A model generated the notes under the pieces. The model had not been told where the DNA came from, searched no databases, and worked only from the letters and a program-made list of their open reading frames with translations. Both the position numbers and the translations under genes were made by a program. Shown here in pieces: positions 21,989 to 63,975 of a stretch of DNA of 64,000 nucleotides (the first letter of the stretch is position 1; every line of letters begins with the position of its first letter). This DNA is from an uncultured Clostridia bacterium (GTDB taxonomy: Bacteria > Bacillota > Clostridia > UMGS1883): assembly GCA_947626145.1 (NCBI GenBank), contig CANQRB010000004.1, positions 29,250 to 93,249 on the forward strand. Direction: 5' to 3'.

Positions 21989-22039
21989 AGGTCATTGCTC
22001 CTTTTCTTTTATTTTGGGCTTTTTCAGCCTTTTTTATAG

Positions 22040-22330: not shown

Positions 22331-22368
22331 TGTTGGATTGATACCGTCTCTGCCGCTTCTCACAAATC

Positions 22369-22403: not shown

Positions 22404-22414
22404 TCTTTTTTCTT

Positions 22415-22987
22415 TTATTTGTGCGGAACAGGATTGTTTTTACTCAAAATATGCTTATAGTATCGGATATAAAGGATGAGAGACATAATCATCAAACATC
22501 CGCTTATTAGAATTAGACCATTTGCTATTTTCAATGGGATATCGGGGAAAAGGATAAGCACAGATATAACAATATACAAAAAAACTGTGTTCAACTTTCC
22601 ATACCATTTTGCGCTGTTGACAGTATCTTTTCGTTTCAAAGCAAGATATCCAAGCGTGGCCATGCAGATTTCTTTTCCGATAAACAATACGATCAGAACA
22701 GACATCCACTTATACCGACTCGAAAGGCAGACAATAAGTACACATTGCGTCAATTTATCCGCTATGGGGTCTAATATCTTGCCAAGATCGGATACCATAT
22801 GGAACTTCCGTGCAATGATACCATCAGCAATGTCCGTAATTGCTGACGCGACAAGCACTCCTGTGGCTGCTTGGTAGTGTTTGACCCCGATATAAAGCCA
22901 TACGATCAGCGGGATCATCAGTAATCTTATAACGCTAAGCAAATTCGGTATGGTCAGGATTTGGTCTTTTTTGAATATCCTGTGCAT
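22415..22987 (-). CDS. CDP-alcohol phosphatidyltransferase (PgsA-like)
   Basis: 190 aa, polytopic. Signature DIADGIIARKFHMVSDLGKILDPIADK (D-G-x2-A-R...G...D...D). Confidence 0.8.
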   Translation of the reverse strand: MHRIFKKDQILTIPNLLSVIRLLMIPLIVWLYIGVKHYQAATGVLVASAITDIADGIIARKFHMVSDLGKILDPIADKLTQCVLIVCLSSRYKWMSVLIVLFIGKEICMATLGYLALKRKDTVNSAKWYGKLNTVFLYIVISVLILFPDIPLKIANGLILISGCLMIMSLILYIRYYKHILSKNNPVPHK

Positions 22988-23005
22988 TGAATATCCTCCC
23001 TTAAT

Positions 23006-23851
23006 CTATTCCGTTTCATCTGATCTCATTTTTGCAACAGCCTCTTTATAGAACACATCCAAATCTCCGATATAATTTTCTTTCCACGGTTTATTCCTTC
23101 CGCAGTAGTGAATTATAATGGAGTGCTTTCGTACCCAATTCAAATCAAGACTTTTTTCAAATGGACTGTGCACCCGATAAAGCCACTCTGTCATGTTATA
23201 TCGAAATGGGTCCAGCGTATAGATTTTGCTGCCATACAGGCTGCTGATAATGTCCTGATCCGGAAAGACAAGATGAGATTTTCTCTTTTCGATGAAGTGA
23301 AACACATCCGCATAGTCCTGCTCTTTCCGTAAAAGCGAGAGGTTCATGAGCAACACGCCGGAATTAATATATGGGCTGTTGTCATCCATATCCAGACGCA
23401 GTTCATTGAACTTATGGAGAAACCCAAGACTGTCAATGTGTGACGCTGCCGCATAATAGTATTCTTCCATCGAGGTCTGATACAGTGGAAGAATCGAACC
23501 ATTGAGAACAAGATCGGGGTCAAGATAGAGCACGCGGTCGAGAGTCTCCGGCAGATAGCGTGCAGCAAAAATACGGTAATAAATCTCTTGTGGATAGCGC
23601 GAAGTTGTTGGGGCCTCGTCAAGCGCCAAATAATCAGCCTTTATTGGGATCAGACATCCTCCTGCCTTAAAAAGCATTTTTTCGGTTGCTTTAAGCGCCT
23701 GCTTTGAAATTGAGGAATGAAGAAGATACACATGGAATACGCAGCCTGGGTTGGAGCGAATCAAGGTTGAAAGCATCACATTCAAATAGGGGATGTAGTT
23801 TTCATCCAAAGTAACAAGAATATTAATCGGATTTATCAATCCAGGATTCAT
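23006..23851 (-). CDS. Family 8 glycosyltransferase (GspA/LPS glucosyltransferase-like)
   Basis: Start at MNPGLINPINILVTLDENYIPYL (GGAGGG RBS; the track's upstream extension is rejected). YLDPDLV DxD motif and a GT8 core. Confidence 0.8.
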   Translation of the reverse strand: MNPGLINPINILVTLDENYIPYLNVMLSTLIRSNPGCVFHVYLLHSSISKQALKATEKMLFKAGGCLIPIKADYLALDEAPTTSRYPQEIYYRIFAARYLPETLDRVLYLDPDLVLNGSILPLYQTSMEEYYYAAASHIDSLGFLHKFNELRLDMDDNSPYINSGVLLMNLSLLRKEQDYADVFHFIEKRKSHLVFPDQDIISSLYGSKIYTLDPFRYNMTEWLYRVHSPFEKSLDLNWVRKHSIIIHYCGRNKPWKENYIGDLDVFYKEAVAKMRSDETE

Positions 23852-23917
23852 TTTAATCCCTCCCTGTTTCTTATGTTGTATATAGTCTTCTTCACCCATT
23901 CACAAATCCTACCATTT

Positions 23918-24625
23918 CTATCGTGGTTTCAGAGTATTTTTATTTTGTTGGGTCTTTTTTAAGAGGTTATCCATTCTCCGATCAAGTTCCGCGCTGAGGT
24001 TTGCGCACTGATAAAGTTCCTCAGCCATTTCCGGGGTAAATGCAGAATCCTTTTTATAACGAAGCTGATGTTCAAGGCTGGCCCAGAAATCCATCGCTAT
24101 CGTGCGCAGCTGAATTTCTACTTTCATCATCCGTTTTTCATGTGCCAAAAAGATCGGAATTGCTACAATCAGATGCAGACTTCTATATCCGTTGGGTTTC
24201 GGGTTTTTTATGTAGTCCTTTTTTTCAATCAGGGTAATGTCATCCTGTATGAGCAATGCCTCTGACAGCGCATAAACATCGTCCGGAAATGAGCAGATTA
24301 CTCGAACACCGGCAATATCGTTTAGATTTTCTTCTATAGAGGAAAGTGTGGGCGGGATGCCCCGCCGCTCCAATTTTTCTTTTATGCTGCGGGGATTTTT
24401 CAGTCTGGTTTTGATACTGCTTATCGGATTACGGTCGAATTCCAAAGAATATTCTTCATTCAACACATTGAATTTTGTTTCAATCTCCATCATGGCACAT
24501 TTGTAATAGGACATCAGGCGGATAAAAGGTACAGATTTTCTCTGCATCCAGTCGATTGTCTGATCGTCCACAATAGAGAGCATTCGTGTTTTTATATTTT
24601 CATCCTCTTGATTCCATTCAGACAT
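23918..24625 (-). CDS. Small alarmone synthetase (RelA/SpoT-domain GTP pyrophosphokinase, RelQ/RelP-like)
   Basis: Start at MSEWNQ with GGAAAGGAAG RBS. Synthetase motifs GYRSLHLIV, EIQLRT, DFWASLEH.LRYK. ~235 aa with no hydrolase domain. Confidence 0.8.
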   Translation of the reverse strand: MSEWNQEDENIKTRMLSIVDDQTIDWMQRKSVPFIRLMSYYKCAMMEIETKFNVLNEEYSLEFDRNPISSIKTRLKNPRSIKEKLERRGIPPTLSSIEENLNDIAGVRVICSFPDDVYALSEALLIQDDITLIEKKDYIKNPKPNGYRSLHLIVAIPIFLAHEKRMMKVEIQLRTIAMDFWASLEHQLRYKKDSAFTPEMAEELYQCANLSAELDRRMDNLLKKTQQNKNTLKPR

Positions 24626-24692
24626 TCTGATCTTCCTTTCCAAAAAACAAAGCTTGTTGGATCAATACCGGCTCTGCCGCTTTTCGCAGGTA

Positions 24693-24724
24693 ATGATAGC
24701 AGAGAAAACTAAACTGAAACAAAA
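24693..24724 (-). promoter_or_regulatory. Conserved promoter module, copy 2 (upstream of the SAS-GT8-pgsA operon)
   Basis: Minus-sense GTTTTGTTTCAGTTTAGTTTTCTCTGCTATCATTA. The -10 is ~70 nt from the start codon. Confidence 0.55.
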
Positions 24725-24818
24725 CAACGACGGACCCTTCGAAAAAGAAGAATCCGTCTGACCGCTTTACGGCGGAAGTAATAAACTAATTTTATAACCA
24801 TTTCGCAAGTTGACTGTA

Positions 24819-26588
24819 TCAAGCTGCAAGGCAGCGAGCGTTGGCGCTGGATTGCTCCAGCCGGTCAGATGCTGCTTTGATTGCAGCCATCTCACTTTCA
24901 GTTACGGTTTCCGGTTTATATTTGCCAAGCAACTTTCGTAATGCAGAACAGTCTTCTTTAATCTGCTTTTTTTCTTCTTTTTCAAGCTGCTTCCCAACTT
25001 TGTGCAATGCCTGTTCAGCTTCTGATAATACCTTCCCTGCGCGATTAACCATTTCTAAAGAGTTACGGCGAACACCATCCTGTGCCGCATACTGTTCCGC
25101 ATCGCGAATCGCCTGTTCAATCTCCGCATCGGACATTTTATCATTGTTCGAAATGGTAATAGACTGTGCTTTCCCCGTATCCAAATCTCTTGCGGACACT
25201 TTTAAAATTCCATTGGCATCAATGTCGAAAGTAACTTCAATCTGCGGCACTCCTGCGGGGGCTTTCTTAATTCCGTTAAGTTTGAATTTGCCGATGGTCT
25301 TATTATCGCGTGCCATTGGCCGTTCTCCTTGTAGAACATGAATTTCCACACTGCTTTGAAACGGTGCCGCGGTTGAAAAAATCTGTGAATAGTGAATGGG
25401 CAAAGTGGAATTTCTCTCCACAAGACGTGTTGCGACACCGCCTACTGTTTCAATAGAAAGGCTGAGAGGGGTAACATCCAAAAGAAGGATACCGTTTTCC
25501 GAACCGGCAATCTGCAGCGAACCGCCAGAAAGCGTGTCTCCCTGAATGGCGGCGCCCTGAGCAACACACTCATCCGGATTGATATTCTTTGACGGTATAA
25601 TACCGGTCAATTGACGCACTTTTTCCTGAACAGCGGGAATACGGGTTGCGCCTCCGACAAGGATGACCTTGCCAAGTTCGGATGGCGCAATACCAGCATC
25701 ATTCAAGGCGTTCTGTACCGGAATTGCTGTTCGATCCACAAGATCGCGGGTCAGCTCGTTGAATTTGGCACGGGTGAGGATAGTATCAAAGTGTATTATG
25801 CCGTCCTTTTCCTGGGCCAGGTACGGCAGGCTTATCATAGCGTTCTCTGAGCCGGACAGTTCCTTTTTTGCCTGTTCAGCCGCTTCACGCACACGCTGCA
25901 ATGCTACATAATCTTTTTTTACATCTGTATGATACTGCCTCTGAATTTCCGAAATCAAATACTCAGTGATACGCTCATCAAAGTCATCGCCGCCCAAATG
26001 GTTATCACCATTTGTTGCCAGAACTTCTATAACGCCGTCTCCAATCTCAATGATGGAAACATCAAAAGTACCGCCGCCAAGGTCATATACCATGACCTTT
26101 TGCTGTGTTCCGTTATCCAGCCCGTAAGCAAGCGCGGCGCTGGTTGGCTCATTAATAATCCGTTTTACATTTAAGCCTGCAATTCGCCCGGCATCTTTTG
26201 TGGCCTGTCGCTGAATATCGTTAAAATAAGCGGGTACAGTGATGACCGCGTCCGTCACTTCCTCTCCAAGAAAGGCTTCTGCATCCTTGCGCAGTTTTCG
26301 TAGAATCATTGCACTGATCTCCTGCGGCGTAAATCTTTTACCGTCAATATTGATAGTCCAATCCGTCCCCATGTGACGTTTCACAGACGAAACGGTTCGG
26401 GACGCATTAGTAACCGCCTGTCGTCTTGCCGTTTCACCCACTAACCGTTCACCGGATGCGGTAAAAGCAACAATGCTGGGAGTGGTTCTTCCGCCTTGTT
26501 CGCTTGGAATGATAACGGGTTTGCCGCCCTCTACAAAAGCGACGCAGCTATTCGTTGTTCCAAGATCAATACCGATTGTTTTTCCCAC
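24819..26588 (-). CDS. Hsp70-family chaperone paralog (DnaK-like, not in a canonical hrcA-grpE-dnaK-dnaJ context)
   Basis: Probable GTG start at [14 protein letters not shown] (GGAAAGGATGG RBS). Complete actin-like NBD ([24 protein letters not shown]) and substrate-binding domain. Neither grpE nor a full dnaJ is adjacent. Confidence 0.85.
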
Positions 26589-26605
26589 AGTAATTCCATC
26601 CTTTC

Positions 26606-27406
26606 CTACATACATCTAAGGCAGCCAAATGGGCCGCATAGGAATTGCATGGCTAAAAAGCCAAAACATATTTTTTGTATATTAGTGGCTTCCATATCGA
26701 AGCCTTTTGCATTTTGTTCATAGGTTTGCTCTGAACGGCGAAATTTTTGCAAAAGCAGATGATAGGTGCGATTATTCGGCTCCATTTGTGATGCTCTCTG
26801 CATATGGTCGATTGCCTGAACGGTGTTACCAAGACCATGATTGGCAAGAGCGCTTAAATAATACCACCTTGCACCTCGTCCTACGCTCGGTATACGGGTC
26901 AAAATCCAAATTGCCTCTTGATAGCGATGGTTATTGATTTCAGTAATGGCCTGCCTGATTTCCATATTGTCGCCCGGCTCAGGCTGCGGATTCATAAAAA
27001 CGGCATCATCATTGCCGTTCCGTTCAAATCCAAATCCAAAAATATTCCCAAAGTCAAAGCCGCCAAAATCGCTCGACCAGCCACCCGGACCTCGATAACC
27101 GCCAGAGCCGCCCTGCCTTTCATATCCGGTTCCACTATAACCGCCGTTTTGATTTTCCGTATATCCCCCATATTGCCTACTCTGTCCGTAAGATTGGCGC
27201 TGCTGTGCTCGCCTTGCCTCATACTTCTGCGGATTCATCAACATATCGTAGGCTTCATTCACCGCATTCATTTTTTGGCTCGCGGTCGGATCATCGGGAT
27301 GCAAGTCAGGATGATATTGCTTTGCCTTTTGACGATATGCTTTTTTTATTTCTTCTTTAGTCGCTCCTTTAGGAACGCCCAGAGTTTGATAAGGGTCATT
27401 GACCAT
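26606..27406 (-). CDS. J-domain protein (DnaJ N-terminal domain only) with a Gly/Tyr-rich linker and a helical C-terminal domain
   Basis: YQTLGV...[15 protein letters not shown] contains the HPD motif. It lacks the CxxCxGxG zinc-finger and the client-binding domains of true DnaJ. Confidence 0.8.
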
Positions 27407-27409
27407 GGC

Positions 27410-28228
27410 TCACTTTTTCCTTTCCGTCTGCATTTGCCGGTTATATTTGATCCAAACGCCAGAATAAAGAATGTTCCTTAAAATGTGGGCGTCCTGGACA
27501 AGCGGCAGCGATTCAAAGGCTTCAGCAGCTTCTCCGAGAATGGTCTTCAGCATGGAGCGGATTTCTTCCTGACTCAGAGTGACAGAAGAAAAAGGATTAT
27601 AACTTCCTTTTTTCTGGTCATGCCTTAAATCAATCGCGGCATCGGCAAGATAGATATACTTTCCGATATGATAACCAAACTTCTGCAAACGCGGCATCCA
27701 GTGATCCGGCTCAACCACAAAAATCGTTGACATCAATCTGCCAAAGCTGTTGGCTGCCGCATCTGGAGAGGCGAAGCAGGATTTCTCAATTTCAGAGATT
27801 TCATTTATTTCCTTTTCGATGATCGAACACTGATCTTTTCTTGCTGCTCTGACTTCTTCATAAGCCTTTTTAAGCAGAGTGGCATAGCACTTGTGGGAGA
27901 TATTTCGATCATCGTTCCAGTCGTCAAGACATTTGAAGTATGTCAAGGCTATTGTCATATCGGCGGCATAGTCTATATATTTACCGGACAGATAATTATG
28001 TTTCTTGCATGGATGCACGGCACATCGCACCGCTTTGCTGGTTTCCTCCGGTTCATACAAGGATGATAAAAACATAGCCAAGAATGTCAGATCGTATGTC
28101 AGTCCCAATCGCGACCTAAATCCATACCTTTCCCCCAACGCATGACACAATCCGCAATAAAAGGCACGATACCGTTCTTTTTCTTCATCAGTAAGACCGG
28201 ATAAATTGGCCTGTATGATTCCAAACAT
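27410..28228 (-). CDS. Uncharacterized Cys-rich cytoplasmic protein co-operonic with the J-domain/Hsp70 pair
   Basis: 272 aa; N-terminus MFGIIQANLSGLTDEEKERYRAFYCGLCHALGERYGF. From memory it resembles DUF5685-type proteins that accompany Hsp70/J pairs in Clostridia; this is not verified here. Confidence 0.6.
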   Translation of the reverse strand: MFGIIQANLSGLTDEEKERYRAFYCGLCHALGERYGFRSRLGLTYDLTFLAMFLSSLYEPEETSKAVRCAVHPCKKHNYLSGKYIDYAADMTIALTYFKCLDDWNDDRNISHKCYATLLKKAYEEVRAARKDQCSIIEKEINEISEIEKSCFASPDAAANSFGRLMSTIFVVEPDHWMPRLQKFGYHIGKYIYLADAAIDLRHDQKKGSYNPFSSVTLSQEEIRSMLKTILGEAAEAFESLPLVQDAHILRNILYSGVWIKYNRQMQTERKK

Positions 28229-28237
28229 AGTGCCACC

Positions 28238-28648
28238 TCATGTTTTGCGGGTTATTTTGCCTTTACATACCGGACAAGTGATTTCAATTTGCCCTTTTCC
28301 TTTCGGAACTCGTAGCCAACTTTTGCAGTTCGGACATTTATAATACCGATGCGTCTTTCGATCTCGCCACATATTTTTCCGACGTTTGAAACTCTGCTTC
28401 ACTTTGTCTGTATATTTCAAGAAAGTTTCCCGCTCCTTCTGTCGTTTTTCAAGATTGCGGGAAAAGCTGCGAAACATCGACCAAATCAACAGAATCATCG
28501 CAATCGGATATAGCAGAGGGACGAGCGGGGAAATGAGTACGAAAACCAGCACCGCAATCAATAGAAATTTGGAAAGCTCGTCATAGCCGTATCTTCCGTA
28601 CATCCATGCCTGCATTTTTTCTCCGAGCCTTTGCAACCATCGTTTCAT
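28238..28648 (-). CDS. Small membrane protein with a C-terminal zinc ribbon
   Basis: 136 aa; one or two TM helices, then CPNC...CPVC near the C-terminus. First gene after promoter module copy 3. Confidence 0.65.
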   Translation of the reverse strand: MKRWLQRLGEKMQAWMYGRYGYDELSKFLLIAVLVFVLISPLVPLLYPIAMILLIWSMFRSFSRNLEKRQKERETFLKYTDKVKQSFKRRKNMWRDRKTHRYYKCPNCKSWLRVPKGKGQIEITCPVCKGKITRKT

Positions 28649-28688
28649 TTTCCGTTTCTCCTTTATCGGCTTACTCTTTTTACACCAA

Positions 28689-28722
28689 ATTTTACAGCAA
28701 GAATCTAAACTGAAACGAAACT
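28689..28722 (-). promoter_or_regulatory. Conserved promoter module, copy 3 (upstream of the zinc-ribbon/DUF/J-domain/Hsp70 operon)
   Basis: Minus-sense GTTTCGTTTCAGTTTAGATTCTTGCTGTAAAATTT. The -10 TAAAAT is ~40 nt from the ATG. Confidence 0.55.
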
Positions 28723-28928
28723 AAGGAAGAGCTTTCTTCCAGACTATTTTTTCGGTAAGTTCAGTTCTGATAGATTTACTGAATAGCCGCAGAAGTCATA
28801 GACCTACATAAAAAAGAACCTCCACAACGAAGGCTCTCACGGTAAATCTCATATTGGAAGCGGCAGTATGCCTCACAGCACACTGCCACTTTACGCTTCT
28901 CATGCTTAATTAAATGTCCCGCACTATT

Positions 28929-29714
28929 TTATCCAATGCCTCTGAAAGCATTAACGGAAAGAATCGCCACGCCTAAAACCGTCAGCACCACACCAACAGC
29001 CCTGTTGAGCGTTTTGGCGCTGGCCTTGTTTGCGAACAATGCGGCGATCCTTGCCCACAACAGAGTAAACGCCACGCAGAGAGCGAGACACCATAGGTCG
29101 GGCATATCGCCAATGGCAAAATGACTGACGGCGCCGGTCAGCGCGGTAAAGGTCATAATAAAGACACTGGTACCCACAGCGGTTTTTAATTCATATCCCA
29201 AAATGCTGGTCAACAGAAGCAGCATCATCATTCCACCGCCTGCGCCCACAAAACCACAAATGAAGCCGACGACCATTCCGCAGACAATCGACTGAATCGT
29301 CCGCTTTTTTGCGCTTACGACAGCCATCGCCTCCTTTGTGGTCATGACAGGTTTTACAATAAATTTGATGCCCAAAAGCATCGTCATGAAGACGGAGAAG
29401 CTGCCCATAGTGGCGTTGGAGACCAGACTGGCTACCCAACTGCCTACTAAGGTGAAAAGCAAGACGGCCACCATCATAACAAGCCCGTTGCGAATGTCGA
29501 TGTTTTTGTTTTTTCCATAGGTATAGGCGCTGACCGCACTTGCCAGCACGTCACTTGCCAGAGCGATGCCTACCGCTTCATAAGCCGGCATACCCATAAA
29601 TGTGATCAGCATTGGGCTGATGACTGCGGCGGCGCTCATTCCGGCAAAACCGGTTCCCAAACCCGCTCCGATACCTGCTATAAAACAAACTAAAACTTTT
29701 ACCCACAGATTCAT
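28929..29714 (-). CDS. TauE/SafE-family (sulfite exporter-like) membrane protein
   Basis: Start at MNLWVKVLVCFIAGIGAGLGTGFAGMSAAAV with GGAGAAAAA RBS. Two repeated 4-TM halves with G-rich motifs, typical of TauE. The track's 5' extension is rejected. Confidence 0.75.
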   Translation of the reverse strand: MNLWVKVLVCFIAGIGAGLGTGFAGMSAAAVISPMLITFMGMPAYEAVGIALASDVLASAVSAYTYGKNKNIDIRNGLVMMVAVLLFTLVGSWVASLVSNATMGSFSVFMTMLLGIKFIVKPVMTTKEAMAVVSAKKRTIQSIVCGMVVGFICGFVGAGGGMMMLLLLTSILGYELKTAVGTSVFIMTFTALTGAVSHFAIGDMPDLWCLALCVAFTLLWARIAALFANKASAKTLNRAVGVVLTVLGVAILSVNAFRGIG

Positions 29715-29845
29715 TTTGCGTTTTTCTCCATATATTTTTTTATATTCTTTTCCACCCGCGTTATGTAGGACTGAAACTGCCGCTGACCTCTTTGTCAAGA
29801 TCGTCTGCGATGATATCCGCAAAATCGAAGCACTCTGATAAAAAA

Positions 29846-30940
29846 TCAGTTTTTCTGGCTTTCTTCTTCTGCATTTAGCTTTGATTTCGGCAATGTAACC
29901 GTAAACATGGTAAGATTGTTTTCGCTTTGAACCGAAACCGTTCCGTTGTGCAATTCCACCACTTTTTTGACAATTGCAAGCCCGATTCCGTTTCCCTCAC
30001 CGGAGTGTGAACTGTCAGCCTGATAAAATTTCTGAAAGATTCGTGATATACTTTCCGCAGGAATTTCCTCTCCCGAATTGATGATATCCACGGACAGGGA
30101 AGACGGTTGATTTTTAATATTGACTTCAATGACTCCTCCAGCGGGAGAAAATTTGATCGCGTTATCCAGCAGATTGATCCACACCTGTTTCAAAAGCTCC
30201 TCATTGGCAGAAATCCTGTATTCACCGAAATCCACTTTAAAGTCCAGTTGCTTTTTTTCCCACTTGTCGGCAAGCAACAGGATGGAAGACCGGATTTGTT
30301 CTGAAAGGTTAAACTTTACAACATCCGTTAAAATCGTTTGATTTTCTACCCGCGTCAGATTCAACACGTTTGTCGCCATATCAGAAAGCCGCAGAGATTC
30401 TTCTTCGATAACCGCCAAATATTCCCCTTTTTGTTCTTCTGTCAGGTTGCCTCGGCGAAGCAGCTTTGCAAAGCCGGCAATAGATACGATGGGCGTTTTG
30501 AATTCATGCGAAAAATTATTTACAAAATCCCCACGAAGCATCTCTGTATTTTTGAGTTCAGAAGCCATTCGATTGAAGCTGTGCGAAAGCTGCGAAAAAG
30601 TAGGATGTTTGGATATGGGCCATCCGAAATCCAATCGGGCACTGAAATCACCGGATGCCAGCCGATCGATTTGATAAATTACATTCCGCAGGGGGCGGGC
30701 GGATATTTTACTGGATAAATAGGCAACAATGACACCGACAATATTACTGATGACGATCATGTAGAGGATGATAATACCGATGTTTGATCGGATATCGGTA
30801 TCAAGCGTGACAACTTGAAAATGTACCAGCATATAAATAATAGAAGCGGTTATTGAAGTAATAATAAATTGAATGAAAAAAATAAGTGTCGATATTAAAA
30901 ACGTGAGCGCAAAATAATGTTTTCGATTTTGTTTGTTCAT
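29846..30940 (-). CDS. Sensor histidine kinase (two N-terminal TM helices, HisKA, HATPase_c)
   Basis: H-box FSHEFKTPIVSIAGF, N-box LLDNAIKFSPAGG, G-boxes GEGNGIGLAIVKK. Overlaps the regulator gene stop. Confidence 0.9.
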   Translation of the reverse strand: MNKQNRKHYFALTFLISTLIFFIQFIITSITASIIYMLVHFQVVTLDTDIRSNIGIIILYMIVISNIVGVIVAYLSSKISARPLRNVIYQIDRLASGDFSARLDFGWPISKHPTFSQLSHSFNRMASELKNTEMLRGDFVNNFSHEFKTPIVSIAGFAKLLRRGNLTEEQKGEYLAVIEEESLRLSDMATNVLNLTRVENQTILTDVVKFNLSEQIRSSILLLADKWEKKQLDFKVDFGEYRISANEELLKQVWINLLDNAIKFSPAGGVIEVNIKNQPSSLSVDIINSGEEIPAESISRIFQKFYQADSSHSGEGNGIGLAIVKKVVELHNGTVSVQSENNLTMFTVTLPKSKLNAEEESQKN

Positions 30941-31611
30941 ACTTTTTTCACCGCCTTATATCCGAGCCCGCGCACGGATTCGATATCAAATTCTTCCCAA
31001 CCCTCGAACCGTTTGCGGAGCCTGCCGATGTGAACCGTCACAGTTTCCCACCCGGTATCGCTCTCAGCGCCCCAGATTTCATCCATCAGTTGAATCCGTG
31101 TAAAAATCTTTCCGGGGTATGACAGCAATTTATAAAGTAACAAAAATTCCTTTTGCGGGAGTTCTTGTGTCTCGCCGTTTTTGGTCACGGTAAAGGAATC
31201 GTAATCCAAAATTACATTTCCAATCGTCATTTTACGTTCGTTGGCAATTTGAGCGCGGCGTAGAAGTGCTTTGATTCGCCAGAGCATTTCTTCCTCATCA
31301 ATCGGTTTTGTCATGTAGTCGTCAATCCCTAATGAAAAACCTTTATGTTTATCTTCGGGGAGCTGTTTTGCCGAAACCATAAGAATGGGAAGATTGTTCT
31401 TGCTTTCGCGGAGGATTTTTGTAAATTCATATCCGTCCATTTTCGGCATCATTATGTCGAGAATCACAAGGTCAATATACTCTTTATCCATTACATCGAG
31501 GGCGTCTTCACCGTTTTCCGCAGTAAATACAGAATAGTGCTCCGTTTCAAGCACGGCTTTGAGCAGCCGGCGTGTATTTTTATCGTCGTCTACAACAAGA
31601 ATTTGGAACAT
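30937..31611 (-). CDS. OmpR-family response regulator
   Basis: Receiver domain VVDDDKN...DLVILDIMMPKMDG plus a winged-helix C-terminus (GYEFTK...RGLGYKAV). Confidence 0.9.
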   Translation of the reverse strand: MFQILVVDDDKNTRRLLKAVLETEHYSVFTAENGEDALDVMDKEYIDLVILDIMMPKMDGYEFTKILRESKNNLPILMVSAKQLPEDKHKGFSLGIDDYMTKPIDEEEMLWRIKALLRRAQIANERKMTIGNVILDYDSFTVTKNGETQELPQKEFLLLYKLLSYPGKIFTRIQLMDEIWGAESDTGWETVTVHIGRLRKRFEGWEEFDIESVRGLGYKAVKKV

Positions 31612-31642
31612 TGTTTACACCTCCTAATAATCAATATAAGAT

Positions 31643-31675
31643 AAGATAACATACAAATCTAAACTGAAAAGAAAG
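31643..31675 (-). promoter_or_regulatory. Conserved promoter module, copy 4 (upstream of the response-regulator/kinase/TauE operon)
   Basis: Minus-sense CTTTCTTTTCAGTTTAGATTTGTATGTTATCTTAT. The -10 TATCTT with TGT is ~30 nt from the ATG. Confidence 0.55.
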
Positions 31676-32096
31676 TGTGCGAGTTTAATCCCCAAAATTT
31701 ATTATTTCGTTCAGCAGGCTTTTTCGCGTCTTTGAGCAACAGCCACATCTTTCCCATTTTATCGACTCCTGCAATACGTCCGGCAAAACAGTAATAATTT
31801 AATCATGCGGGGAGAGATACCCCATTTTTCGCTGCCTATTTGAACGTCATGTAATTAAAATATCGCACCTCCACATATAAAATTATATTTCGTTATCTTG
31901 AAGAAAGCAAGTGCATTTGATGAACATTAGATGAATTATTTACCCTCGCTACTGAAACTGTAAAGACATATCCAAATAAAGAAAGGGACTGTAAAATGGA
32001 TCAATTTCAATAAAGCGGACAGAAAAACATAAGATGGCAGGAAATTATGTAAAATATTCAATATCCATATTTCTCATAAAGTATATCACATAAAAA

Positions 32097-32318
32097 TCAT
32101 AAAAGATATTTGTCTTGATTTTCGATTACATATTGAAGCCATTCCTCTGGAGTAGGAATGTCGTTTGAAGATGGTATTTTTTTCCACTGTGCTCTAATTT
32201 CAGGATTTGAACTGGTCATTCCAAATTTTATTCGCTCTGAAATTATAACTTTAATTTCGTCAACCGTCATATTCCTTTTCTCAGCTATTTCGGCTAATGT
32301 TATTTTTATCTGTTTCAT
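32097..32318 (-). CDS. Small hypothetical protein (73 aa), divergent from the XRE regulator
   Basis: AGGAGG RBS 6 nt upstream. MKQIKITLAEIAEKRNMTVDEIKVIISERIKFG. Confidence 0.55.
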   Translation of the reverse strand: MKQIKITLAEIAEKRNMTVDEIKVIISERIKFGMTSSNPEIRAQWKKIPSSNDIPTPEEWLQYVIENQDKYLL

Positions 32319-32472
32319 GGACCGCCTCCTATTAATTTATTGTTTGTATTATTCCATAATATAACCGTATGCCCTTTGCGGGGCGTATATAATCTACTGA
32401 TTATGACTATTATATCACATTTTTGTGATTTAGAATAGTATTAATAGAAATTATTTTTAGAAGGTTATCTTT

Positions 32473-32787
32473 ATGGATGTACAAAAGCGCATCAGGTAGT
32501 TGATGGCGGAAAGAGGCTGGTCAGACTATAGGCTTGCAAAGGAGTCCAACCTCTCTCACTCAACTATAACGAATATATTCAACAGAAATAACGCCCCAAC
32601 GCTGCCAACATTGGAGTCCGTATGTTCCGCTTTGGGGGTAACCATGTCACAGTTTTTCACTGAAGGCGACGAACCCGTTGTGTTGAGCAGCGAACAAAAA
32701 ATAATACTTGATAGGTTCAACACGTTATCACCGACTCAGAGAAAAGTCATTATTGAACTGCCTGGCAATATGAACAAAGGCACATGA
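32473..32787 (+). CDS. XRE-family HTH transcriptional regulator interrupted by an in-frame TAG at codon 9 (alternative start TTG/ATG at 32500/32503)
   Basis: MDVQKRIR-TAG-LMAERGWSDYRLAKESNLSHSTITNIFNRNNAPTLPTLESVCSALGVTMSQFF is a canonical HTH_3. The TAG at 32497-32499 would be CAG in an intact IRQLMAERG helix 1. Confidence 0.6.
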
Positions 32788-32837
32788 TGTCATAACAAGA
32801 CAGAGACCGGTCGATGAGCTTTTTTCGACATTGCTAA

Positions 32838-32871
32838 AAAACCTGCATACATTTCTGTGTGCAGGTTTTTC
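32838..32871 (+). terminator. Rho-independent terminator after the XRE gene
   Basis: aaaaacctgcatac-atttctgt-gtgcaggttttt. Confidence 0.6.
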
Positions 32872-32879
32872 AAATATAA

Positions 32880-32995
32880 AAATCTAACGATTACTCAATA
32901 ATCCAACGATTACCCCAAAAAACTAACGATTTCCCATAAAACCAACGATTTCCCATAAATCCAACGATTTCCCATAAATCCAACGATTACACGGC
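32880..32995. repeat. Iteron-like tandem array: six copies of a 19-20-bp unit (consensus tCCAACGATTtcCCATAAA)
   Basis: AACGATT cores at 32886, 32905, 32925, 32944, 32963 and 32982. The last three units are near-identical. There are no spacers, so it is not a CRISPR array. It lies between the XRE terminator and tRNA-Ser. Confidence 0.7.
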
Positions 32996-33153
32996 GGCGA
33001 GTTAGGATGGATAATTTCCGAAAAGCAAAAACTGCATTTATTGCCTCCGTAAGGTGCGGAAAAATTATGCCGACCATACAAAAAAGCCGATAATATCGGC
33101 TTTTTTGCACAAAGAAAGAACCTTGACTTTGTATCAAAATCAAGGTTCTTATT

Positions 33154-33244
33154 TGGCGGAGAGAAAGGGATTCGAACCCTTGATCGGGGTTAACCGATAC
33201 ACGATTTCCAGTCGTGCGCCTTAGACCAGCTCAGCCATCTCTCC
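33154..33244 (-). tRNA. tRNA-Ser (anticodon GGA)
   Basis: Minus-strand GGAGAGATGGCTGAGCTGGTCTAAGGCGCACGACTGGAAATCGTG...long variable arm...GGGTTCGAATCCCTTTCTCTCCGCCA. 7-bp acceptor stem, CTGGAAA anticodon loop, class II variable arm, encoded CCA. Confidence 0.85.
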
Positions 33245-33368
33245 GCGCTGACAAACGGTATTATAGCACATATTTTGCCGTTTGTCAAGGACTTTTTTCA
33301 ATTCTTATATCAAAAATTTATATCTTATATCAAAAATTTAAACAAAATTTAGAAAAGAATTAGGAAAA

Positions 33369-34067
33369 TCATTTACAGGCCTCAACGAAGCTGAGAAGGA
33401 TCTTAAACTGATCCTCATCACCGCGCCAGGAAAATTCCGGGTGCCACTGTACCGCCTGAACAAAGCGTTTCTCCGGACAGTATACGGCTTCGATCAGGCC
33501 GTCGGGAGCGGCGGCCATCGCCTTCAGCCCCGGCGCAAGAGCCTTTATGCCCTGATGATGATAGCTGTTCACACTCAGGATATCCTTCTGCAAAAGATGC
33601 CGCAGCGGTGAACCGGGCACGAGACAGACCTCGTGCCAGCCGCGGTCATAGGGCGGCACCATTTTATGACAGACGGCATCCTCCTTTTGAGACGGGATAT
33701 CCTGATACAGCGTACCGCCCAAGACCGCGTTGATAAACTGTATTCCACGGCATATGCCGAAAACAGGCCTGTCCAGCTCAAAGGCCTGACGGAACAGCTC
33801 CGTTTCCAACCGGTCACGGGGCGGATAGGGAGCGCCGCAGGAGCGCAGCCTTTTCTCACCGTAAAGCGCCGGATCCACGTCCTGACCTCCGGTAAACAGG
33901 AAGCCGGAGCACAGCTCCGCCATCTCCCCCACGCTGTCGGGGTCAAAGGGCAGGATCACGGGCAGCGCTCCGCAGGCCGTCAAGGCGTCCACATACCCCG
34001 GCAGCATCCAGATACTGTCTTTTTCCGTATCAAAAAGGGGCACAACGCCGATAACAGGTTTTTTCAC
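33369..34067 (-). CDS. Class I glutamine amidotransferase-like gamma-glutamyl hydrolase (peptidase C26, PuuD-like)
   Basis: Catalytic Cys in CRGIQFINAVLGGTL and the His/Glu pair near the C-terminus (WHPEF). 232 aa. Confidence 0.75.
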   Translation of the reverse strand: MKKPVIGVVPLFDTEKDSIWMLPGYVDALTACGALPVILPFDPDSVGEMAELCSGFLFTGGQDVDPALYGEKRLRSCGAPYPPRDRLETELFRQAFELDRPVFGICRGIQFINAVLGGTLYQDIPSQKEDAVCHKMVPPYDRGWHEVCLVPGSPLRHLLQKDILSVNSYHHQGIKALAPGLKAMAAAPDGLIEAVYCPEKRFVQAVQWHPEFSWRGDEDQFKILLSFVEACK

Positions 34068-59059: not shown

Positions 59060-59566
59060 TTATCTGAAAATTCTGCTCCTCACATAAACCGACATTCCGT
59101 CCAGTATTTTGTCGTTGGGCTCGAACACCAGCATACAGCTGCCGCCCTCGCCGGCAAACACGGCGAACATAGCGCCGGAAGCATCGGGAGCGGACGCCGC
59201 CTGTATCACCTTGGCGAAGCTCCGCTTCATCTCCCCCTTTTTGTCCGGATCGTCAACCCGGGCGCAGAGCTCCATGGCCTCCATATCGAAGCCGCAGAGC
59301 CGCCGGCGGTTCCTGCCGCCGATTATCACGTCCACGTCCAGATGGTCGTTGGTGAGGATATATTCAAATTCTCTTTTTATGCCGGAGGCCAGCCACCAGG
59401 CCCCATAGCCTCCCAGCACCAGAAGCACCAAAGCGCTGGCAAAGCCCAGCCACAGTCCGGCTCCGCCGCATATCACGAACAGAGCCAGGATTATGAGACA
59501 GTATTTGAGCATATCGCTTCGGTCGAATTTTTTCTTTACAAGATATTCAGTATAGTTTTCCATCAA
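59060..59566 (-). CDS. Small membrane protein of unknown function
   Basis: 168 aa. Two N-terminal TM helices followed by a soluble domain. Sits between the PBP1A and nnr genes. Confidence 0.6.
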   Translation of the reverse strand: MMENYTEYLVKKKFDRSDMLKYCLIILALFVICGGAGLWLGFASALVLLVLGGYGAWWLASGIKREFEYILTNDHLDVDVIIGGRNRRRLCGFDMEAMELCARVDDPDKKGEMKRSFAKVIQAASAPDASGAMFAVFAGEGGSCMLVFEPNDKILDGMSVYVRSRIFR

Positions 59567-62235
59567 AAGCCTCCGTCGCTTACGACCTCGCCGCCGGAAG
59601 GAGCGGTTCCGCCGCCGTCACCGCCGCCGGAGGGAGCCACGCTGCCGCCGCCACCGCCGGAGGGCGTTACACTGCCGCCGCCCGAAGGCGTTACGCTGCC
59701 GCCACCGCCGCCGGAAGGTGTTACGCTGCCGCTGTCGCCGCCGCCGGAAGGCGTTACGCTGCCGCTGTCACCACCGCCGGAAGGCGTTACGCTGCCGCTG
59801 TCGCCGCCGCCCGAAGGCGTTACGCTGCCGCCACCGCCGGAGGGTGTTGTGCTGCCGCTGTCGCTGCCGCCGGAGGGCGTTGTGCTGCCGCTGCCGTCGC
59901 CGCCGCCGGAGCCATCACCGCCCGCGGGCTCGGCGGAAACCGTTTCGCCGCCTTCGCCCGAGGTCGTTTCGCCTGAGCCGGAGCCGGAGCTTCCGGAATC
60001 GTCATCATCGTCGGAGCTGCTGCCGGAACTCGTATTACGCCTTGACGACGAGCCGCTGCTGCTTGTCGCCTTGCCCTCGCTGAGGACATTCTTGCTGCCG
60101 GTCACAAGGGGATGGAGCTTGCAGCGCGTAGTGGGGATGCTGCCGCTCTTGAAAATCTGACTCTCCACACGGTCACAGCCCGGATTGGCCCGCTGTCCGC
60201 TGTCGGAGCAGATCATCACCGAGACCTCCTTGCCGGGTCTCTCGAAATCCTTATATTTCAGATCCTCGTGAATGGGCATCATCACCTTGCGCCAGGTGAG
60301 GGCCGCCGGGTTGGAAGAAAATCCGCTGAGGTTCCGGGGCTGGTCATAGCCGAACCACACCGCGCCCACATAATAGGGTGTCATACCCACGAACCAGCGG
60401 TCATTGCTGGTGGTGGTGCCGGTGGTGCCGGTCTTGCCGGCTATTTCCATTCCGCTGAAGTTGGCCATCTTGCCGCTGCCGTAGCTGACAACGTCCTTAA
60501 GCATCGAGATCATGTCGGCGGCGGTCTTTTCGCTCATGGCTATCTCATGGGTGGGCTCGCCGCTGAGGATAACGCCGCCGTTGGCGTCCAGCACCCTGGT
60601 GTAAAGGGTGGGCTTGTTGTAAAAGCCGTCGTTGACAAAGGAGCAGTAGGCCGCCGTGAGCTCAAGCACGCTGACGCCGTCGGTAAGGCCGCCGAGGGCC
60701 AGAGGCGCCAGATCCTTATCGGAGAAGGTCTTGCCGTTGCGCTCCTCAAAATCCACAAGGGTGGAAATGTGCATACGCTCGGTCATATAGTCGAAGGAAT
60801 TGTCCACGCCGAGGTAACGGCACACCTTGACGGCGGGCACGTTACGGGAATTGGCAAGGGCGCTGCGAACCGAAACGTTGCCCACAAAGCGGTTGTCCAC
60901 GTTTTTCGGGGACCAGCCGTTATAGGTGACGGGGGCGTCCTTTACCGTGGAGGTGGGCGTTATGAGGCCGTATTCCATGGCCGGACCGTAAACGCCGATG
61001 GGCTTGATCGTGGAACCCGGCTGGCGCAGGGACTGAGTGGCACGGTTAAGTGTGAGGTTGCCCTCCTTATCTCCGCGTCCGCCCACAAGGGCCTTTACCT
61101 GGCCGGTATAGGGATCCATTATGACCATGGCGGACTCGGGCTGTACCTCGCCCCTGCCCTTGGGGAACGCCGACTCGTCGGCGTACACGTCGTCCATGAT
61201 CTGCTGGAGGTTCATATCCTGAGCCAGATATATCTTGAGGCCGCCGTTAAATAGAACGCGCTGGGCTATATCCTTTGTATAGTTATACTGGGTCATAAGA
61301 TCGTCAATGATCTGGTTTATGGCCGCGTCAACATAGTAGCTCTGATAAACTATCTCATCCTGAGTCTTAAGGGGCACAAAATGGAGCTCCTGCGCCACGG
61401 CATCCTCATACTGAGCCTGAGTGATGTGGCCCAGCTCAAGCATTTTTCCAAGGACTACCTCCTGCCGCTCCTTATTGTTTTGGGGATTTGCGTAGGGGTC
61501 GTACTTGGAAGGGGACTGGGTTATGCCGGCTATGCAGGCGCACTCGGCCAGAGACAGCTCCGATACGGGCTTGCCGAAATATACGTTGGCCGCCGAGGAA
61601 ACGCCGTTGCACTGCTGACTCAGGAAAATGGTATTAAGGTAATATTCGAGGATTTCTTCCTTGGACAGCTCATCCTCCAGCTTGAAGGCCCGGTATATCT
61701 CCTGAATTTTTCTTTCAACGCTGTAGCCCTTTTCGCCGGTAATGTTCTTTATGAGCTGCTGTGTCAAGGTGCTTCCGCCGAAGGTACGGTCGCTGGTGCC
61801 CCTGATCTTGCCGTAGACATAGGTTACCGTCGCGCCTATGGTACGCTTGATGTCAACGCCCTTATGGCTCCAGAAGCGCTCGTCCTCAATGTCAATGAAG
61901 GCGTTCTGAAGGTCCTTGGGTATATCGTCAAGGTCCACCCAGATGCGGTTTTCGTTGTCATAGAGCCGCTGCACCTCAACGGTGTTGCCGTCGGGGTCGG
62001 TGCCGTAAACAAAGGACGTCATGTTCAGCTTTATGTTGTTCACGTCGATGGTGTCCACGGTCTCAACATAGCCGAACAGGGCTCCCGCCACTATACCGGC
62101 GCCGATAATGCCGATGAGCAGCACAATGAGCAGCAGCGCCAGAAAGACGTTCCTGAACGACAGGAGAATCGCCATTCCGACGCTTCTCTTCTTTTTGCCG
62201 GAAGAGGTTCCCCTCCGAGTTCTGTCATTTGCCAT
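59563..62235 (-). CDS. Class A penicillin-binding protein (PBP1A: transglycosylase + transpeptidase) with a C-terminal Gly/Ser/Pro-rich repeat tail
   Basis: Start at MANDRTRRG with GGAGGTG RBS. GT51 motifs (EDERFWSHKGVD, GGSTLTQQ). TP motifs SxxK (STIKP), SxN (SRN), KTG (GKTGTT). ~170-aa tail of SGGGDSGSVTP repeats. Confidence 0.9.
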   Translation of the reverse strand: MANDRTRRGTSSGKKKRSVGMAILLSFRNVFLALLLIVLLIGIIGAGIVAGALFGYVETVDTIDVNNIKLNMTSFVYGTDPDGNTVEVQRLYDNENRIWVDLDDIPKDLQNAFIDIEDERFWSHKGVDIKRTIGATVTYVYGKIRGTSDRTFGGSTLTQQLIKNITGEKGYSVERKIQEIYRAFKLEDELSKEEILEYYLNTIFLSQQCNGVSSAANVYFGKPVSELSLAECACIAGITQSPSKYDPYANPQNNKERQEVVLGKMLELGHITQAQYEDAVAQELHFVPLKTQDEIVYQSYYVDAAINQIIDDLMTQYNYTKDIAQRVLFNGGLKIYLAQDMNLQQIMDDVYADESAFPKGRGEVQPESAMVIMDPYTGQVKALVGGRGDKEGNLTLNRATQSLRQPGSTIKPIGVYGPAMEYGLITPTSTVKDAPVTYNGWSPKNVDNRFVGNVSVRSALANSRNVPAVKVCRYLGVDNSFDYMTERMHISTLVDFEERNGKTFSDKDLAPLALGGLTDGVSVLELTAAYCSFVNDGFYNKPTLYTRVLDANGGVILSGEPTHEIAMSEKTAADMISMLKDVVSYGSGKMANFSGMEIAGKTGTTGTTTSNDRWFVGMTPYYVGAVWFGYDQPRNLSGFSSNPAALTWRKVMMPIHEDLKYKDFERPGKEVSVMICSDSGQRANPGCDRVESQIFKSGSIPTTRCKLHPLVTGSKNVLSEGKATSSSGSSSRRNTSSGSSSDDDDDSGSSGSGSGETTSGEGGETVSAEPAGGDGSGGGDGSGSTTPSGGSDSGSTTPSGGGGSVTPSGGGDSGSVTPSGGGDSGSVTPSGGGDSGSVTPSGGGGGSVTPSGGGSVTPSGGGGGSVAPSGGGDGGGTAPSGGEVVSDGGF
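59590..59900. repeat. Tandem ~33-nt coding repeats (GGxDSGSVTPS units) in the PBP1A tail
   Basis: About 9 near-identical units, gaaggcgttacgctgccgc(tg/ca)tcgccgccgccg. A likely slipped-strand/recombination-prone tract. Confidence 0.8.
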
Positions 62236-62433
62236 AAAAAGCGCACCTCCGAAGTTATTTGAGGAGTAGTAATTATAGAAAGACATAATTAACTTATTAT
62301 ATTTTACATCAAAACCGTTAAAAAAGTATTACAAAATCCCCTTTTTCCACTTTTATTTTGCGGGAAATTGCATTTTGAATTTTTACTGCGCATATTGCAC
62401 AAAAACATTGTAAAATTATTGTATAATTCTGAC

Positions 62434-62558
62434 AAAATGCTTCTTGCAAAACCTGAAACCCTGTGGTAAGATATATACGTACTCGATGAGAGTGCAAAAA
62501 CTTTTTTCATTTTCCCTCCTTTTTTAGTGGCAGATACACAGTGTCTGTCATTTTTTTT
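62434..62558 (+). ncRNA. Candidate sRNA unit 1 (extended -10 promoter -> ~125 nt -> hairpin+T8 terminator) with a UUUUCCCUCCUUUUUU anti-SD-like motif
   Basis: TGtATAAT at 62420-62427. Terminator cagatac-aca-gtgtctg + tcattttttttgc at 62531-62558. The 3' 65 nt are duplicated in unit 2. Confidence 0.3.
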
Positions 62559-62669
62559 GCGCTCTGCCGCCGTTATTATAAGTTTTGCACAAAACCTCGC
62601 CGCTTTCTTTATAAAAATTGAATAAAATTACCGTTGATATGGCGCTTTAAAAGCTGATATAATAACAGT

Positions 62670-62748
62670 GCGCCAGTAGAGTGCATAAGTTTTTTTCATT
62701 TTCCCTCCTTTTTTAGTGGCAGATACAACGTGTCTGTCATTTTTTTTG
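62670..62748 (+). ncRNA. Candidate sRNA unit 2 (TTGATA-18-TGaTATAAT promoter -> ~80 nt -> identical terminator)
   Basis: -35 at 62634-62639, -10 at 62658-62663. It shares gagtgcaTAAgtttttttcattttccctccttttttagtggcagatacaacgtgtctgtcattttttttgc with unit 1, and ends 30 nt before the DUF815 gene start. Confidence 0.3.
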
Positions 62749-62778
62749 CAATAATACTACCTTAAAAGAGGTGCCGTC

Positions 62779-63975
62779 ATGAACAGATACGCTTATTTAA
62801 ACTCCCGTCTGGGTACGCTGACCGTATTCCGCAATATCCTCGGCGAGCCCGTGATAGCAAGGCTAAGGGAGCTTCTCTCCTGCGAGGACTGGGACAAGCT
62901 CCGTCTGGCCGAGCTGTACTGCGGCTTTGTACACGAGCTGTACCTCACCGGAGACAGCCTTACCGACTGGGTGCTGCGGTACATATCCGGCGACGAAAAC
63001 CCATACGTGGGCCGCATTATTTCCGGCGGGGTTCCGGGTAAGTTAATGGAAGAGAGCCTGACAAACGAGCTGAAAATTCTTGAAGAGCTGGCCGCGCTGG
63101 ACTGCGGAGAGGTTGCGGAGGCCATTAACTGCGGGCTTGAGCTGCCCCGCTGGGAGAGCCGCCGCGAGGATCTGACCGCCGCCTGCCGCCGGAGAATTGC
63201 CGAGATACCCACCAGGGGCTACGGTATATTTGCCAAATATCATATGTTCACCCTGGACGGCGACGGAAATCTCGTGCCCGTCCGCCATCCCGACCCACAG
63301 ACTCTTGACAGCCTCTACGGCTATCAGCGGGAGAGGGAGACCGTAATGCGCAACACCCTCGCCCTTATCGAGGGCCGGGGCGCCAACAACGTCCTCCTCT
63401 ACGGGGACGCCGGCACCGGTAAGAGCTCCACGGTCAAGGCCATCGCCAACGCCCTTAAGGACAGGGGTCTGCGCCTTATCGAGGTCAGGAAAAACCAGCT
63501 CTACCTGCTGCCGGGGCTGATGGACAGCCTTGAGGGCAGCCCGCTGAAATACATCATATTTATTGACGATCTGAGCTTCGGCGGCGGGGACGCCGACTTT
63601 GCCGCCCTGAAGGCCATACTGGAGGGCAGCGTCAGCAGCCGCGGCACAAACGTGGCCGTTTACGCCACCAGCAACCGCCGCCATCTGCTTAAGGAGAGCA
63701 TGAGCGACCGTGACGGGGACGACATTCACGCCTCCGACACCCGTCAGGAGCAGCTGAGCCTTTCCGCCCGCTTCGGCCTGACGGTGACCTTCCTCCGGCC
63801 GGAGCATGAGCTTTACTGCGAAATAGTGGAAAAGCTGGCCCGTGAGCACGGCATAACCATGGACAGGGATCGGCTTCTGGTCAAGGCTGAGGCCCACGCC
63901 ATCAGGAACGGCGGCCGCAGCCCCCGCACCGCCAAGCAGTTTGTGGAAATGCTCAGTCAGGGAGTTATAGAATAA
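62779..63975 (+). CDS. DUF815-family AAA+ ATPase
   Basis: Walker A LLYGDAGTGKSS, Walker B YIIFIDDLSF. 398 aa. AAAAGAGGTG RBS. Confidence 0.8.
   Translation: MNRYAYLNSRLGTLTVFRNILGEPVIARLRELLSCEDWDKLRLAELYCGFVHELYLTGDSLTDWVLRYISGDENPYVGRIISGGVPGKLMEESLTNELKILEELAALDCGEVAEAINCGLELPRWESRREDLTAACRRRIAEIPTRGYGIFAKYHMFTLDGDGNLVPVRHPDPQTLDSLYGYQRERETVMRNTLALIEGRGANNVLLYGDAGTGKSSTVKAIANALKDRGLRLIEVRKNQLYLLPGLMDSLEGSPLKYIIFIDDLSFGGGDADFAALKAILEGSVSSRGTNVAVYATSNRRHLLKESMSDRDGDDIHASDTRQEQLSLSARFGLTVTFLRPEHELYCEIVEKLAREHGITMDRDRLLVKAEAHAIRNGGRSPRTAKQFVEMLSQGVIE

Follow-up and report, generated by a model that had tools for sequence, protein, structure and literature searches.

Tandem units between the PBP1A and DUF815 genes represent a conserved, multicopy family of predicted anti-initiation-region small RNAs in Oscillospiraceae

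The tandem units and their promoters

The window (the whole 64-kb stretch of DNA that was analysed) contains, between two divergent genes, a duplicated sequence with the appearance of a small RNA (sRNA) gene. The identity of the flanking genes, given in the earlier note as those of PBP1A and a DUF815 ATPase, was verified with Pfam. The PBP1A gene, encoding Transgly and Transpeptidase domains, starts at 62235 and is read from the minus strand. The gene of the DUF815 AAA+ ATPase (PF05673, E-value 3.7e-82, with support from synteny) occupies 62779–63975 of the plus strand; in most genomes it follows the last unit in the same orientation. Between both genes there is a 72-nt direct repeat (62489–62560 and 62678–62749), 93% identical and carrying UUUUCCCUCCUUUUUU in each copy; the sequence TTTTCCCTCCTTTTTT is also present in the two copies (62510–62525 and 62699–62714). 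The 34-nt core of the repeat was found at exactly two places of the 64-kb window, with zero occurrences expected, and a covariance-model search of the window did not find a third copy, so that it holds exactly two. Each copy ends in a hairpin (62526–62552 and 62715–62741) of 12 pairs, G-U pairs included, followed by T8, and these were detected by the terminator scan on the plus strand only. The RNA fold of the plus strand had z values of −2.9 to −3.6 with respect to shuffled sequences, and for the reverse complement the fold was no more stable than that of shuffles (z = +0.3 and +0.8). Since the core is repeated where no repeat is expected and the stable fold is limited to the plus strand, the repeat with its sRNA-like features is real and not a product of chance. 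The earlier note had described two tandem plus-strand sRNA-like units with a shared 3' module, each with its own terminator, and the repeat and its hairpins bear this description out.

All the units that were folded, in the window and in related genomes (n = 22), display the same order of elements, namely a 5' hairpin, some 30 unpaired nt and a terminator hairpin with its U-tract. The 5' hairpin has 6 bp (GUACUC-GAUGA-GAGUAC) and its first G lies near the expected transcription start (~+1). The 3' element has the features of an intrinsic terminator, as it is a G+C-containing hairpin with a U-tract directly 3' of it on the transcribed strand. Unit 1 (62479–62558, plus strand, ~80 nt), which is supported by its fold, its conservation and a covariance-model score of 108.5 bits, is made up of the 5' hairpin at 62479–62495, an unpaired stretch at 62496–62525 and the terminator hairpin, with the T-run at 62551–62558; its seed comprises the anti-AUG CAU (62508–62510) and CCCUCC (62514–62519). 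Unit 2 (62668–62747, plus strand, ~80 nt) is supported by its fold, the promoter and terminator scans and a covariance-model score of 92.1 bits, with the 5' hairpin at 62668–62686, CAU at 62697–62699, CCCUCC at 62703–62708 and the T-run at 62740–62747. A plus-strand mini-ORF starting at the AUG of the 5' loop (MRVQKLFSFSLLF) was also considered and rejected, because this AUG is absent in unit 2 of the window and in the related loci L010, L014 and L017, and the length of the T-run varies.

Upstream of the units, a conserved box, NNACAAAA, was located at −82 ± 1 relative to the first base of the hairpin in 18 of 19 units. Next come a block rich in A and T (about −60 to −40), placed where an UP element would be, the −35 hexamer (cTTGnnn), a spacer of 17–18 nt and an extended −10, TGnTA(t/a)AAT, which is 4–7 nt away from the hairpin. 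In unit 2 the box (GCACAAAA, 62587–62594, plus strand) is at −81, and the promoter TTGATA-18-TGaTATAAT at 62634–62663 (plus strand), already proposed in the earlier note, agrees with the consensus at 11 of 12 positions, has the TG and takes the homologous position in all units. In unit 1 the anchored promoter alignment places the box (GCACAAAA, 62397–62404, plus strand) at −82 with respect to the 5' hairpin. Its promoter was assigned by homology to TTGCAA (62444–62449), a 17-nt spacer and TGg plus TAAGAT (62464–62472), on the plus strand. With 8 of 12 matches this promoter is under the threshold of the promoter scan; its position is that of TTGCAA-17-TGaTAAAAT in L003 and of the TGcTATAAT promoters of other units. 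The sequence previously proposed as the unit 1 promoter, TGTATAAT at 62420, does exist (62420–62427) but aligns with no −10 of the family: its homologous sequence in other promoters of the unit 1 type is not a −10, and each unit has a −10 ending 4–7 nt before the hairpin. Since the promoter of unit 1 is at 62444–62472 and not at 62420, both RNAs are expected to have ~80 nt. Of the sizes suggested earlier, ~80 and ~125 nt, the former was retained and the latter replaced by a second RNA of ~80 nt. A search of the window for further combinations of box and promoter returned unit 2 only. On the basis of these signals each unit appears to be a complete and independent plus-strand gene, whose transcription we infer.

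The family in related genomes

The units were compared with two groups of relatives. The first consisted of the loci of DUF815 homologues from uncultured Oscillospiraceae/Clostridia, with 61–96% identity to the protein of the window. The second came from a core-pattern scan of one genome per species, which yielded 15 stretches in about nine MAGs of Oscillospiraceae/Clostridia, mostly from rabbit gut. The combined set contains 22 distinct units from about ten related genome assemblies, and a covariance model (R1) was built from 21 of them. All 22 units scored 74–110 bits with this model, and nothing else in 236 kb exceeded 23 bits. The core UUUUUUCAUUUUCCCUCCUUUUU(U)AG is invariant in all 21 aligned units (columns T33–C50 and T52–G60) although the linked proteins have diverged to 61–70% identity; the loops, the linkers and the upper terminator stems differ. 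The JGI metagenome collection, searched with the relaxed pattern TTTCCCTCCTTTTT-N0-2-AGTGGC, gave six matches, none of them with the anatomy of a unit and hence attributable to chance, and viral contigs gave no match to the unit.

Pairing in the stems is also maintained. In the model-based alignment 97.9% of the cells were paired, against 25–56% in slid controls, and in three pairs both partners have changed. Between genomes the upper terminator stem is exchanged as a whole, with its pairing kept (GAUAC/GUGUC, GACCGG/UUGUC, GACGCC/GGCGUUC). Seven of the 15 modelled pairs never vary, and covariation is modest because the stems themselves are highly conserved. In a strain variant (L002), a G-to-A change has replaced one of the G-U pairs in the terminator of unit 1 by A-U.

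There are one or two copies per PBP1A–DUF815 locus, where most of the units sit, plus extra loci in relatives. The presence of the module upstream of DUF815 genes, which the earlier note had advised checking, was thus found at the DUF815 loci of relatives, and it was found at other loci too. In L026/L020 the extra units are between the genes of a 2-hydroxyacid dehydrogenase and a LUD-domain protein. In one genome the locus is split, with one unit beside PBP1A (L028) and another before DUF815, next to araA (L010); the unit of L028 is followed by a TetR-like gene, assigned by eye, with its own promoter. Several MAG contigs terminate within a unit or right beside it (L018/L025, L017/L007 and L036). 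Because such contig ends fit the collapse of a multicopy repeat by the assembler, the copy numbers per genome are lower bounds.

Two units depart from the common anatomy. That at 6978–7095 of L026 has an insertion of ~30 nt, with an extra hairpin (GGCGCUGUUUUGAAUAGCGCU), between seed and terminator. At 6155–6228 of L023 (minus strand) there is a degenerate second unit, which keeps the promoter cTTGCGG...TGtTATAAT and the terminator hairpin GUGGCAGAUAC...GUGUCUGUCAUUUUU; its 5' hairpin and seed have been replaced, the hairpin stands directly before the DUF815 Shine-Dalgarno sequence (SD), and its covariance-model score is 23 bits.

As far as the sequences allow us to judge, the units are a real, strongly conserved and previously unannotated family of predicted sRNA genes. 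A literature search gave no described sRNA of this kind in Oscillospiraceae, and to our knowledge very few regulatory RNAs are known from this major and mostly uncultured gut family. With its fixed promoter, invariant seed, several copies and stable link to PBP1A and DUF815, the family is unusually definable from sequence alone, and therefore the covariance model R1 is ready for use in annotation.

The seed, its proposed action and known sRNAs

The unpaired stretch of ~30 nt is C/U-rich and carries an anti-SD together with the anti-start codon CAU, within an invariant seed of ~24 nt. The complement of UUUUUUCAUUUUCCCUCCUUUUU is AAAAAGGAGGGAAAAUGAAAAAA, that is, a strong SD, a 4-nt spacer, AUG and two Lys codons, the classical form of a Firmicute initiation region, and this match is exact and in register. 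Because the anti-start CAU is included, the seed mirrors the whole translation initiation region and not the SD alone. The exposed anti-SD-like CCCUCC seed postulated earlier was found unpaired in all 22 units, and invariant.

The reading that we favour, with a probability of roughly 60%, is that the units encode a multicopy trans-acting sRNA which would block translation initiation in the way of the streptococcal csRNAs and of LhrC. Transcription would start at or just before the 6-bp 5' hairpin and stop at the intrinsic terminator, giving an RNA of ~80 nt. This sRNA would pair in trans with the SD and start codon of mRNAs encoded elsewhere in the genome, and the pairing would prevent ribosome binding and possibly trigger mRNA decay. 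As the seed and the promoter layout are common to all copies, these probably form one co-regulated, dosage-additive set, under a DNA-binding regulator that would act at the −82 box.

Complementarity alone is weak evidence for a given target, since any CCUCC stretch pairs with any SD. A near-perfect complement of the seed was not found in the 64-kb window. For the initiation regions of 50 genes of the window, the predicted duplex energy had a mean of −11.6 ± 4.0 kcal/mol. The best energy, −20.5 kcal/mol, was predicted for the gene at 23851 (minus strand) that encodes a GT8 glycosyltransferase; it is about two standard deviations below this mean and, as a model-based value, only suggestive of a candidate target. 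The neighbouring genes were average partners with respect to the 50 genes (DUF815, −11.5 kcal/mol; PBP1A, −9.9 kcal/mol).

Among known sRNAs, the csRNAs (cia-dependent small RNAs, ccnA–E) of Streptococcus, which belong to the CiaRH regulon, share much with the units. They have two stem-loops flanking an unpaired region with an anti-SD and CAU, the latter in 53 of 61 (PMC3091779), and a block of translation initiation has been proposed for them in general and demonstrated for comC (PMC3091779; PMC4507080). Like the units, csRNAs have ~80–150 nt, with a 5' stem-loop, the unpaired anti-SD and CAU, and a terminator; they are likewise present as several near-identical copies per genome, some of them adjacent, with one type of promoter for all. 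The 22 units all fold in this manner, and their CAU and CCCUCC are invariant. However, the host of the units is a member of Oscillospiraceae (Clostridia) and not Streptococcus, their seed is longer and invariant, and their conserved promoter element is the NNACAAAA box at −82 and not the CiaR repeat. This direct repeat (TTTAAG-N5-TTTAAG), which marks csRNA promoters and stands there immediately before the −10, gave no match with up to two mismatches in 62236–62778, nor at the promoter position in the related loci.

LhrC of Listeria monocytogenes has a C/U-rich (UCCC) single strand between two stem-loops that pairs with the G-rich ribosome-binding region of its targets (PMC4132741). As in the units, LhrC is multicopy and each copy has its own promoter and terminator; its expression depends on LisRK and is induced by cell-envelope stress. 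Four of the five LhrC1–5 genes are neighbours within a single intergenic region, an arrangement comparable to that of the two units. LhrC differs in its three redundant UCCC sites, one each in loop A, in the single strand and in the loop of the terminator. The units have one UCCC, within UUUUCCCUCC and in the single strand only, and their loops (GAUGA, and ACA or variable) are not C-rich.

RsaE/RoxS, the analogue suggested in the earlier note, is also a Firmicute sRNA that uses unpaired C-rich motifs against the SD. RsaE/RoxS is usually present in one copy, and its loops contain several C-rich motifs; the units have a single linear stretch against the initiation region, the anti-AUG included. 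The units have one C-rich site and gave no match to the RsaE/RoxS covariance model (RF01820) at E ≤ 10; RsaE/RoxS is not their closest analogue, csRNAs and LhrC being closer.

No family of Rfam 15 matched the units, either in a 1-kb E-value scan or in a scan with a 97-nt query at E ≤ 10, and three related loci gave no match to Rfam at the gathering score. Concerning homology with csRNAs, the 97-nt query gave at E ≤ 10 no Rfam match beyond ncr1241 and chance ones. The sub-threshold ncr1241 model (RF02451), the best match, reached 27.0 and 21.9 bits with respect to a gathering score of 60. It corresponds to an uncharacterised Bacillus intergenic sRNA between yugI and alaT (PMC2965217). The two have in common a pyrimidine-rich UUCCC stretch followed by a terminator, but the first hairpin of the model is not formed in the units, which are not members of this family. 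By analogy, the units would work like csRNAs and LhrC and are members of neither. The gain is incremental and not conceptual, because this class of mechanism is well known; nevertheless the family would offer a clean case for an independent origin of anti-ribosome-binding-site sRNAs in different Firmicutes.

Alternative readings and the neighbouring genes

The position of the units beside DUF815 is the basis of the alternative that survives best, although we consider it unlikely: the unit nearest DUF815 would be mainly a cis-acting 5' leader of the DUF815 mRNA, whose expression would be set by the terminator and possibly by pairing of the anti-SD with the DUF815 SD in the read-through transcript, the short RNA being a by-product. 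The last unit is always co-oriented with DUF815; the terminator is 30 nt from the DUF815 ATG in the window, and the distance from T-run to start codon is only ~25–30 nt in the window and in L003, L009 and L016. The unit remains with DUF815 where the synteny with PBP1A is broken (L010), and the degenerate unit of L023, directly before the DUF815 SD, has kept the promoter and terminator and not the seed. In addition, a possible extended −10 for DUF815, TGcAATAAT (62747–62755, plus strand; uncertain), directly follows the unit 2 terminator and is missed by the promoter scan because it has no −35; TG(c/t)AATAAT follows the T-run directly in L003 and L009 too. In view of the short gap and of this element, transcription of DUF815 may in these three loci either pass through the terminator or begin at a −10-only promoter. 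In L002 (700–730, equivalent to 62748–62760 of the window) an 8-nt duplication of the −10-like element, GCAATAAT-GCAATAAT, was observed between the unit 2 terminator and the DUF815 SD.

However, L008 has a separate promoter, TTGAAA-17-TAGAAT, between the terminator and DUF815, and others were identified by eye in L027, L035, L036 and L017/L007. Units also occur at the unrelated loci mentioned above, before the LUD-domain gene and before the TetR-like gene with its own promoter, so that a 5'-leader position is not obligate, and in a tandem the upstream unit cannot act as a leader. The folds showed none of the alternative, anti-terminator pairing that would be expected of an attenuator or riboswitch, an attenuator does not explain the invariant anti-AUG, and the DUF815 initiation region is only an average partner (−11.5 against the mean of −11.6 kcal/mol). 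The attenuation of DUF815 suggested in the earlier note is consequently not a general rule, since several relatives have a separate DUF815 promoter, although with a gap of 30 nt read-through control is possible in the window.

Rather less probable is that the pyrimidine-rich tract and the lower terminator stem titrate an RNA-binding protein or the ribosome (S1 or 30S), with no specific mRNA partners. The sequence conservation of the U-tracts and of the lower terminator stem, AGUGGCAGA/UCUGUCAUU, exceeds what pairing needs and could reflect protein binding, and several copies are typical of sponge RNAs. Nevertheless, each RNA has one C-rich site and no repeated protein-binding motif, there is no known candidate for the protein partner, and a generic pyrimidine binder would not demand the exact in-register match to SD, 4-nt spacer, AUG and AAAAAA.

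On the minus strand the seed reads as a perfect SD with correct spacing and an ATG, and a weak promoter-like site exists at 62780–62751 of that strand. Small proteins (MKK...) could be made from these GGAGGG-AUG sites, or they could be type I toxins with the plus-strand RNA as antisense antitoxin; we regard both versions as very improbable. The ORFs starting at the mirrored ATG in the 22 units have 14–68 aa and use all three frames after MKK, which indicates that they are not coding. Linker indels of 1–2 nt directly after MKK shift the frame, the ORFs end wherever the A/T-rich promoter sequence offers a stop codon, and shared residues such as LSSST are the conserved plus-strand hairpin read backwards. 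Frame, length and sequence are all unconserved, contrary to what a type I toxin would show. Moreover, the stems hold their pairing by compensatory changes and G-U wobbles that work on the plus strand only; G-U pairs are found at five stem positions in some or all units, where the minus strand would have A-C mismatches, and minus-strand folding, as noted for the window, is no better than that of shuffles. The mean fold energy of the whole unit is −22.0 kcal/mol for the plus strand vs. −15.1 kcal/mol for the minus strand, the plus being more stable in 21 of 22, and the conserved promoter elements are all on the plus-strand side. The earlier view that the minus-strand mini-ORFs are fortuitous agrees with these data. 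ORFs of 23–68 aa lie opposite the sRNA genes in the window (62304–62510 and 62628–62699, minus strand), L003 (2576–2734) and L008 (2673–2867), and gene callers have annotated some such ORFs, of 52–64 aa, as genes in public assemblies. These gene calls are artefacts of the mirrored ribosome-binding site, and annotators should be warned against 50–70-aa "genes" opposite the units.

Finally, a dispersed repeat without function (MITE- or REP-like), or a terminator that was simply duplicated, would suit the multicopy state of the element and the assemblies that break inside it, but is scarcely credible given the lack of terminal inverted repeats, target-site duplications and viral contig matches, the fixed orientation and promoter architecture, and a core that is invariant across genomes with linked proteins at 61–70% identity while loops and linkers vary.

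The PBP1A promoter points to a possible control in common with the sRNA units. This promoter contains the block TTTTGTAATACTTTTTTAA (62318–62336, minus strand), which is unique in the window and was compared in the window, L003, L006, L008, L009, L014, L017, L023, L027, L028 and L035; 10 of these 11 distinct PBP1A-linked sequences have it in identical form, and L009 differs by one substitution. It ends ~11 nt before a conserved TAnAAT −10 (62306–62301 in the window). The minus-strand sequence TTGTCA-17-TACAAT (62435–62407) was discarded as the PBP1A promoter, as it is not conserved even in L003 and the conserved −10 is at 62306–62301. Inside the block there is a third box-A-like sequence, TTACAAAA (62329–62336, plus strand), and TTTTGTRYA is common to the block and to the −82 box of the sRNAs, in opposite orientation. 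The block has the form TGTAAT-N5-TTTAA(C/T). Response regulators of the OmpR family bind direct repeats of this type, with a spacing of 11 bp, and the block presumably resembles the WalR consensus.

The adjacency of PBP1A and the shared TTTTGTRYA box hint at a link to the cell envelope. A more far-reaching and rather doubtful proposal would assign the units to a cell-envelope regulon, as its RNA arm. PBP1A and all sRNA copies would be driven by a single regulator acting at the TTTTGTRYA boxes; the sRNAs would silence exported or surface proteins, whose mRNAs would start with GGAGGG-N4-AUG-AAA-AAA and encode Met-Lys-Lys signal peptides, and the last copy would also be a leaky-terminator leader that couples DUF815 to this signal. 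If this were true, the system would be the convergent counterpart of CiaRH–csRNA and LisRK–LhrC in an uncultured lineage of gut Clostridia. The value of the family would be raised by the regulator of the −82 box, by the possible shared control of PBP1A through TTTTGTAATACTTTTTTAA and by a gating of DUF815 by the last copy.

Other observations were made in the window. The end of the PBP1A protein (59563–60100, minus strand) consists of long low-complexity Gly/Ser/Thr/Pro repeats (...SGSVTPSGGGD..., repeated several times). The stretch from about 14000 to 33500, possibly a cell-surface locus that was acquired, has a G+C content of 0.32–0.46, compared with ~0.58 elsewhere. Among its products are the GT8 glycosyltransferase and a protein of 1438 aa that combines SLH, List_Bact_rpt and M4-peptidase domains.
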